A stretch of 64,000 nucleotides of DNA from Candidatus Calditenuaceae archaeon HR02. Lineage in GTDB: Archaea; Thermoproteota; Nitrososphaeria_A; Caldarchaeales; Calditenuaceae. Every line of letters starts with the position of its first letter. The first letter of the stretch is position 1. Of this stretch, positions 33,754 through 33,916 are shown in pieces. The notes below the pieces were generated by a model. That model was not told the DNA's origin and ran no database searches. It worked only from the letters and a program-made list of their open reading frames with translations. The translations under genes were made by a program, and so were the position numbers. The stretch spans positions 9,048 through 73,047 of the forward strand of contig BEHE01000007.1 of assembly GCA_002898395.1 (NCBI GenBank), in the 5' to 3' direction.

Positions 33754-33916
33754 CTTCGAGAGAAGCGTGTCGAAAAATCATCCGACCGTCGCCAAGATCG
33801 TTCTTCTTGTTATATGATGGAGGTGGGCGTGTCACCGCTCCTTACAAACAATTATACCTAGCCCAGTATAAAAAGGGTTAATGAATGACGAATTTTTCGA
33901 CACGCCCCTTCGAGAG
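33754..33916. mobile_element. MITE-like element: 14/16-bp terminal inverted repeats (AAGCGTGTCGAAAAAT / ATTTTTCGACACGCCC) flanked by a 9-bp direct repeat CTTCGAGAG
   Basis: Read directly from the sequence. Left side: CTTCGAGAG-AA-GCGTGTCGAAAAAT (33754-33778). Right side: ATTTTTCGACACGC-CC-CTTCGAGAG (33892-33916). A third half-site, GGGCGTGTCACCGC, lies inside. Confidence 0.4.

Follow-up and report, generated by a model that had tools for sequence, protein, structure and literature searches.

A short inverted-repeat element with flanking 10-nt direct repeats, possibly a MITE-like relic, beside a TasR/IS110-like mobile unit in Candidatus Calditenuaceae archaeon HR02

What is the small non-coding stretch, framed by inverted and direct repeats, that lies between a TasR-like mobile unit and a decayed cysS gene in the HR02 chromosome? 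We addressed this question in a 64,000-nt stretch of DNA from HR02, a member of the Caldarchaeales (formerly Aigarchaeota); this stretch is referred to here as the window. By sequence reading and with a repeat finder, we located two terminal inverted repeat (TIR) arms, GCGTGTCGAAAAAT at 33765–33778 on the + strand and its partner at 33892–33905 on the − strand (ATTTTTCGACACGC as written on the + strand), which are complementary at 14 of 14 positions and are separated by 113 nt. Lengthening the ends by two bases, which on the left takes in 33763–33764, gives AAGCGTGTCGAAAAAT versus GGGCGTGTCGAAAAAT, a 14/16 match in which both mismatches are A/G; the corresponding 16-nt element end is RRGCGTGTCGAAAAAT. 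The 14/16-bp TIR proposed in the initial annotation therefore stands, and its 14-nt core is perfect. The 9-bp direct repeat described there, CTTCGAGAG, is also present on both sides, but its length is really 10 nt (CTTCGAGAGA). The repeat finder placed the left copy, a putative target-site duplication (TSD), at 33754–33763 (+), 1 nt from the perfect arm, and the right copy lies at 33908–33917 (+), 2 nt from the other arm and directly upstream of a TATA-like box.

The element proper, to which no strand is assigned, thus comprises the 144 bp between the 10-nt repeats (33764–33907). The earlier estimate of ~145 bp without coding capacity agrees with this, as we found no meaningful ORF, just a spurious 62-aa GTG ORF that overlaps the element. 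The third copy of the GCGTGTC core that had been noticed inside is likewise there: it forms part of an internal subterminal-type repeat, GGGCGTGTC, at 33825–33833 (+), whose 9 nt equal the reverse complement of the right terminus and are oriented like the left end. The G+C content of the element is ~43–45%, compared to ~53–59% in the flanking genes, and the kilobase that holds it is the lowest in G+C of the whole window (0.458 versus 0.49–0.64 in the others). The left direct repeat and the outermost bases of the left arm also take part in a short hairpin (CGCTTC-GAGA-GAAGCG, 33752–33767), which has a perfect stem and a loop of GNRA type; reading of the sequence on the right side of the element revealed no counterpart of this hairpin.

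We compared this arrangement with chance expectation. The window contains one perfect non-overlapping 14-nt inverted repeat within 300 nt, whereas 100 dinucleotide-preserving shuffles of the 64-kb window contained a mean of 0.11, with at least one in 10 of the 100 shuffles. At 13 of 63,780 positions (2e-4), a span of 141 nt, equal to both arms and their spacer, was bracketed within 0–4 nt by a 9-nt direct repeat, and the joint chance of a bracketed inverted repeat is ~2e-5. Given both frequencies, the element is not an accident of composition and must be regarded as a real feature: its structural signature, which combines TIRs, an adjoining 9- to 10-bp direct repeat, small size, a non-coding interior, and an end motif that recurs inside, is far beyond chance.

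Prokaryotic MITEs are defined structurally as elements of 50 to 800 bp with TIRs of at least 10 to 15 bp and TSDs of 2 to 10 bp (PMC11602168). The 144-bp element, which has no transposase gene, falls within this size range, its TIR is either 14/14 perfect or 14/16, and CTTCGAGAG(A) flanks the TIRs on both sides at 1–2 nt from the perfect arms. It further resembles MITEs in its intergenic, promoter-proximal position and in a G+C content below that of the host genes. We tentatively interpret it as a MITE-like element, the lone remnant of a miniature DNA transposon that could not move by itself, and give this reading a probability of about 45%. In the history that we envisage, the element would have inserted into ...TCTCTTCG-CTTCGAGAG(A)-TTATTATATAAATCAG..., at a point 10 nt outside a mobile unit already in place, past its left end, and shortly before the TATA box of the now-decayed cysS gene. 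A staggered cut of the target followed by gap repair would have duplicated 9–10 bp, and the direct repeat would then owe its origin to transposition. For such movement, a transposase acting in trans would have had to recognise the ends with their GCGTGTC core, and the internal third copy of the end motif may have provided an extra binding site for it, as for subterminal transposase sites. The predicted empty (pre-insertion) site is CTCTTCGCTTCGAGAGATTATTATATAAATC, also written CTCTTCGCTTCGAGAGATTATTATATAAATCAG, upstream of a cysS-like gene; when the element is excised on paper together with one repeat copy, the spacer from stop codon to TATA box is a compact 24 nt. Since the TIR and the duplication are both still perfect, the insertion would be recent; if so, HR02 should contain further copies and an active transposase. 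Should the element be confirmed as a MITE, ends and a duplication this intact would indicate that a DNA transposase was active not long ago in the Caldarchaeales, a thermophilic archaeal lineage that is poorly sampled, and the element would then reveal the end sequence of the corresponding IS.

A search for further copies or for a parent IS returned neither. Allowing up to two mismatches, the 14-mer arm has no second match in the 64-kb window and none in 333 kb of fetched related Caldarchaeales and other loci; no diverged copy was found in the window by BLASTN at word size 7, none of 44 related loci showed similarity to the element, and no IS bounded by the element ends was present in the window or the fetched loci. 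Scans with the end pattern GTGTCGAAAAAT-N98-128-ATTTTTCGACAC, which comprises 12 nt of each arm with 98–128 nt between them, gave zero matches in genome contigs (one genome per species, 185,579 species) and zero in viral contigs (IMG/VR), and phage and plasmid collections contained no match to the element. The pattern was detected in three metagenome contigs (L001, 1288–1423; L002, 1381–1518; L003, 864–1007), as inverted repeats of 136–144 nt whose arms have the 12-mer GTGTCGAAAAAT in common and, in two of the three, are longer than the 12-mer (e.g., AAGAGGTGTCGAAAAATG). We rejected these as copies of the element, as their interiors have a G+C of 0.66, 0.25, and 0.57 and align with it at scores on the level of shuffles. 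Because both interiors and G+C are unrelated to those of the element in the window, we regard the shared 12-mer as coincidental. Relatives of the cysS relic, which were looked at for a donor or empty site, were on short contigs and included no close relative, the best CysRS being 63% identical over the full query and partial matches reaching at most 77%.

These results bear directly on how far the MITE reading can be taken. Unlike the element, of which one copy is known, MITE families comprise several copies with different flanks and usually include a parent IS with the same ends, and the interior of the element, again unlike those of recognised families, matches nothing. The searches found no second copy and no transposase or IS with these ends, and presence in several copies, the main behavioural mark of a MITE, is therefore a prediction for this element. 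The MITE-like designation of the initial annotation agrees with the structural definition, but the second copy and the IS with the same TIR were not found in the collections searched. The counter-case named there, a single-copy element whose TIR no IS shares, is what we see in the window, in the related loci, and in the genome, viral, phage, and plasmid collections; this does not establish a copy number of one for the source genome itself. The IS1, IS4, IS256, and ISAs1 families produce 8- to 10-bp target duplications. Judged by general family description, the length of the duplication and the 14- to 16-bp TIRs of the element are compatible with these families but, unlike them, the element has a transposase gene neither inside it nor near it.

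The surroundings may offer a second route to such repeats. From left to right, the low-G+C island in which the element lies holds the 280-aa ORF, a zinc-ribbon ORF, the element, a TATA-like box, the cysS relic, a hairpin/tandem repeat at 34175–34225, and an alcohol dehydrogenase gene. The TasR-like 280-aa ORF (32407–33249, − strand) is 100% identical to HRbin02_00838. Divergent from it runs a small zinc-ribbon ORF (CSKC...CPRC, four cysteines), which covers 33391–33723 and, once a frameshift at a ACACACACA run is corrected, extends to 33743, ending at the TAA at 33741–33743. Homologues of the zinc-ribbon ORF are likewise divergent from the TasR-like gene in L005 (two copies), L041, and L049, the gene being degenerate in L049 as well. 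One subfamily of the unit therefore seems to carry it as an optional second gene. On the other side of the element, the TATA-like box (TTATATAAA, 33921–33929) precedes the start codon at 33954 of the relic of cysS, the gene for cysteinyl-tRNA synthetase (within 33918–34175). The relic has a G+C of ~0.42–0.45; it retains the first ~80 codons with the HIGH-motif region, is truncated after them, and has suffered a frame-shifting deletion between GTATAT repeats. It is followed by a perfect 13-nt hairpin (GCTCGTATAAATA/TATTTATACGAGC, 34175–34187/34193–34205, 5-nt loop), which with the TIR of the element accounts for all long perfect inverted repeats of the window, and by a perfect 18-nt tandem duplication (ATTTATTTATACGAGCAG twice, 34190–34225) in which the hairpin arm is duplicated again. 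The alcohol dehydrogenase gene starts at 34234, and its likely TATA box shares sequence with this hairpin and duplication at 34175–34225.

In one respect this setting favors the MITE reading, in that the DNA around the element is mobile or decaying (the multi-copy TasR-like unit, the frameshifted zinc-ribbon ORF, the truncated cysS). Against it stands the presence, in the same 500-nt stretch to the right of the element, of the 13-nt hairpin, the 18-nt tandem duplication, and the slippage deletion in cysS, which means that local rearrangement could also make repeats here. The element might accordingly be a scar of such rearrangement, with its repeats generated by template switching, slippage, or filler DNA in repair and no dedicated transposase, and both the frameshift at the ACACACACA run of the zinc-ribbon ORF and the single-copy state of the element in everything searched would fit this history. 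However, slippage normally removes the DNA that separates direct repeats; it would not be expected to leave an exact 10-nt duplication on both sides of a segment with 14-nt inverted ends, and the order TSD-TIR...TIR-TSD with gaps of only 1–2 nt, whose joint chance was given above, is the exact product of transposition. We consider a rearrangement scar unlikely.

The position of the element beside a promoter raises the further idea that it is a protein-binding dyad or operator, in which a regulator would bind the three GCGTGTC boxes (33765, +; 33827, +; 33899–33905, −; spacing ~62 and 72 nt) and form a DNA loop ahead of the TATA box at 33921. Three boxes within 141 nt, a right arm that ends 16 nt before the TATA-like box, and the proximity of a winged-helix gene (31425–32012) and the zinc-ribbon ORF are in keeping with this. 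The promoter, however, drives only the truncated and frameshifted cysS relic, and the GCGTGTC motif shows no enrichment across the window (six occurrences against an expected 5.0, three of the six inside the element). Moreover, an operator leaves the flanking 10-nt direct repeat without a role, and no conservation was found in the 44 related loci or the 333 kb of fetched sequence, so we regard this explanation as improbable.

The long terminal stem that the arms would form also suggested a gene for a structured non-coding RNA of ~140–165 nt. Folding of the element does beat shuffles, with −48.4 kcal/mol on the + strand (z = −3.25) and −54.5 kcal/mol on the − strand (z = −3.80), and the palindromic TATA-like box sits just to the right, but these z-scores are those that any 14-bp inverted repeat gives, and it gives them on both strands. 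Rfam yielded nothing at gathering score and no match to the element even at E = 10, the sole match at E ≤ 10 being a 13-bit PreQ1 that lies outside it. Homologues in which covariation might be seen were not found in the genome, metagenome, or viral scans or among the 44 related loci; the flanking direct repeat would again be unexplained. We accordingly hold an RNA gene to be the most improbable of the identities weighed here.

Given that the element adjoins the TasR-like unit, it might instead constitute the left end (LE) of that unit. We compared it with other copies and rejected this. The closest relative of the unit copy in the window, on a short ENA contig (L049), has 84.2% nucleotide identity over window positions 32621–33743; the homology ends exactly at 33743, and from 33744 on the sequence is unrelated and carries an ogt gene. 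The small ORF has an HR02 paralogue, HRbin02_00570, whose divergence from the window sets in at 33743 too, and as noted, the 44 related loci show no similarity to the element. Since two other unit copies end at 33743 without the element, the left end of the unit is at 33743 and the element is an independent feature in its flank. A promoter context, CCTTCGA..GAT..TTATATAA..CAG, that is common to the window and L005 was set aside as a shared element end; because it is absent from L049, we read it as a generic BRE/TATA resemblance. Palindromic extragenic (REP) elements invite a related comparison, as the element, too, is an intergenic inverted repeat adjoining the end of an IS110/TasR-like mobile unit. 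REPs are highly repeated sequences of 20–40 nt that lack a flanking duplication and serve as insertion targets for IS110/IS1111-family elements. Unlike them, the element has a 113-nt interior, is known as a single copy, and is absent beside the other unit copies.

The neighbouring unit (~32260–33743) is a TasR/IS110-like multi-copy mobile unit that combines a RuvC-Nop protein with a 3′ structured RNA. The 280-aa protein belongs to a multi-copy family: HR02 encodes five paralogues of it, and Ca. Caldarchaeum subterraneum encodes at least four. In the Caldarchaeales MAG PSS.bin.6 (JAVVGN01), we found 33 loci of the unit among L012–L048, many of them at contig ends, so that the repeated units interrupt the assembly. 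The PSS.bin.6 loci define the unit ends as GGGTATCCGTATAGTGTTG... on the left and ...ACTAACCAACCCCTCCCCCACTCTTTCC on the right, with no terminal inverted repeats and no obvious target duplication in those loci, and some copies contain optional extra modules inside the left end or beyond the right end. The 280-aa protein had no match in Pfam, NCBIfam, or PHROG, and the family profile had no sequence match to PDB chains. An AlphaFold2 model built from 30 family members was confident (pLDDT 90, pTM 0.85), and in this model the protein is predicted to have an N-terminal RNase H/RuvC-like domain, a coiled coil, and a Nop-like domain; the predicted structure most resembles TasR and the IS110 recombinases. 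Residues D7 in the first strand and E67 in the fifth strand are both invariant.

Conservation among the unit copies at the DNA level extends ~115–150 nt beyond the stop codon. RNAalifold on seven loci predicted a long rod of 58 pairs, 10 of which show compensatory changes, and places the structured RNA of the window copy at 32435 down to 32284 (− strand); comparison of the unit RNA with Rfam gave no match. Two hypervariable segments of 8–9 nt flank the central hairpin, segment A (GGGGTTATA, 32381–32373) and segment B (AAAGGTTTA, 32343–32335) in the window copy, and the 12 aligned PSS.bin.6 copies are almost completely conserved save for these two segments, which are framed as GGGCT-N7-9-TTWTAAT. 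Reverse-complement matches of at least 8 nt to a copy's own segment were present in the right flank (240 nt downstream) of 8 of 18 copies, compared to 1 of 304 non-self combinations, and own-segment matches of the same length in the left flank (240 nt upstream) of 5 of 10 copies, compared to 5 of 88. The left-flank matches are mostly same-strand and mostly involve segment A. Segment B of the window copy matches TAAACCTTT at 32258–32250, at the right junction, and in L006 both half-sites stand adjacent and uninterrupted beside its right end. From these alignments, each unit copy appears to carry one structured RNA, in which two guide-like segments differ between copies and match the sequences that border the copy in question. 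Two candidate roles for such guides are to direct insertion of the unit or to direct cleavage of empty sites (homing).

The left-flank match expected for the window copy is absent, and it is here that a link between unit and element could be sought. The element might be an accessory or target structure of the unit, for example a hairpin-type landing pad or the remains of a left-flank half-site region that the guide RNA recognises. Alternatively, it might be an insertion that divided the left-flank target of the guide and thereby abolished recognition of the occupied site. It starts 10 nt past the left end at 33743, where the missing match would be expected, whereas other copies have guide segments that match both flanks and the window copy keeps only the right-flank one. 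In addition, sequence reading showed a CGTGTC box beside guide B in the unit RNA that resembles the GCGTGTC ends, and guide B matches 9 of 10 nt at 33872–33881 within the element. By our own estimate, however, a 9/10 match is expected ~0.1 times per 3.5 kb, and the coincidence of the 6-mer CGTGTC has p ~0.08. The closest copies, L049 and HRbin02_00570, have unrelated DNA beyond 33743, and the element is absent from all 44 related loci. A resemblance of the element to the right flank or the RNA core of the unit was likewise rejected, as 441 of 1,000 and 741 of 1,000 shuffles, respectively, scored equally well. We therefore judge functional coupling to the unit to be very improbable, and retain the solitary, MITE-like relic as our preferred reading of the element.

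The TasR-like gene also called for comparison with TIGR arrays, which consist of tandem units with two alternating 8- to 12-nt repeats and ~9-nt spacers, repeated 5–15 times (PMC12045711). Tandem Repeats Finder detected no TIGR-type array in 31000–35000. The element shares with TIGR arrays and tigRNA units a TasR-like gene close by and a unit closed by a terminal stem (PMC12045711), but it differs from them in having no ~36-nt periodicity, no alternating 8- to 12-nt repeats with 9-nt spacers, and no box C/D-spacer layout, and the guide-like RNA of the TasR-like gene is on the side away from the element (32284–32435). Both tigRNAs and the loops of IS110 bridge RNAs carry short guides that address opposite strands of neighbouring half-sites (PMC12045711), and the unit RNA would follow a similar targeting logic, with one stem-closed unit and two short guides to opposite strands. 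In contrast to TIGR-Tas, which the literature searched describes mainly in viruses and CPR bacteria and with arrays, the unit has a single RNA unit and belongs to a multi-copy mobile element of archaeal chromosomes. That literature yielded no account of a transposon-like, single-guide form related to TIGR-Tas, and if this holds, the unit could stand to TIGR-Tas as TnpB/IscB elements stand to Cas12/Cas9. We thus see the unit at ~32260–33743 as the more significant object, one that merits a study of its own. The element by itself carries little weight as a modest and probably ordinary feature; its practical value is that of a marker, since the work of excluding it from the unit fixed the left end of the latter at 33743.

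Two non-coding RNA genes elsewhere in the window may be recorded here. An archaeal RNase P RNA is located at 8651–8949. The 23S rRNA gene (20952–25457) is 4,506 nt long compared to a 2,987-nt model, and this excess in length points to insertions of ~1.5 kb, probably introns. Inside the gene lie two ORFs, of 213 aa (21998–22639, − strand) and 140 aa (23333–23755, − strand), which could encode homing endonucleases.
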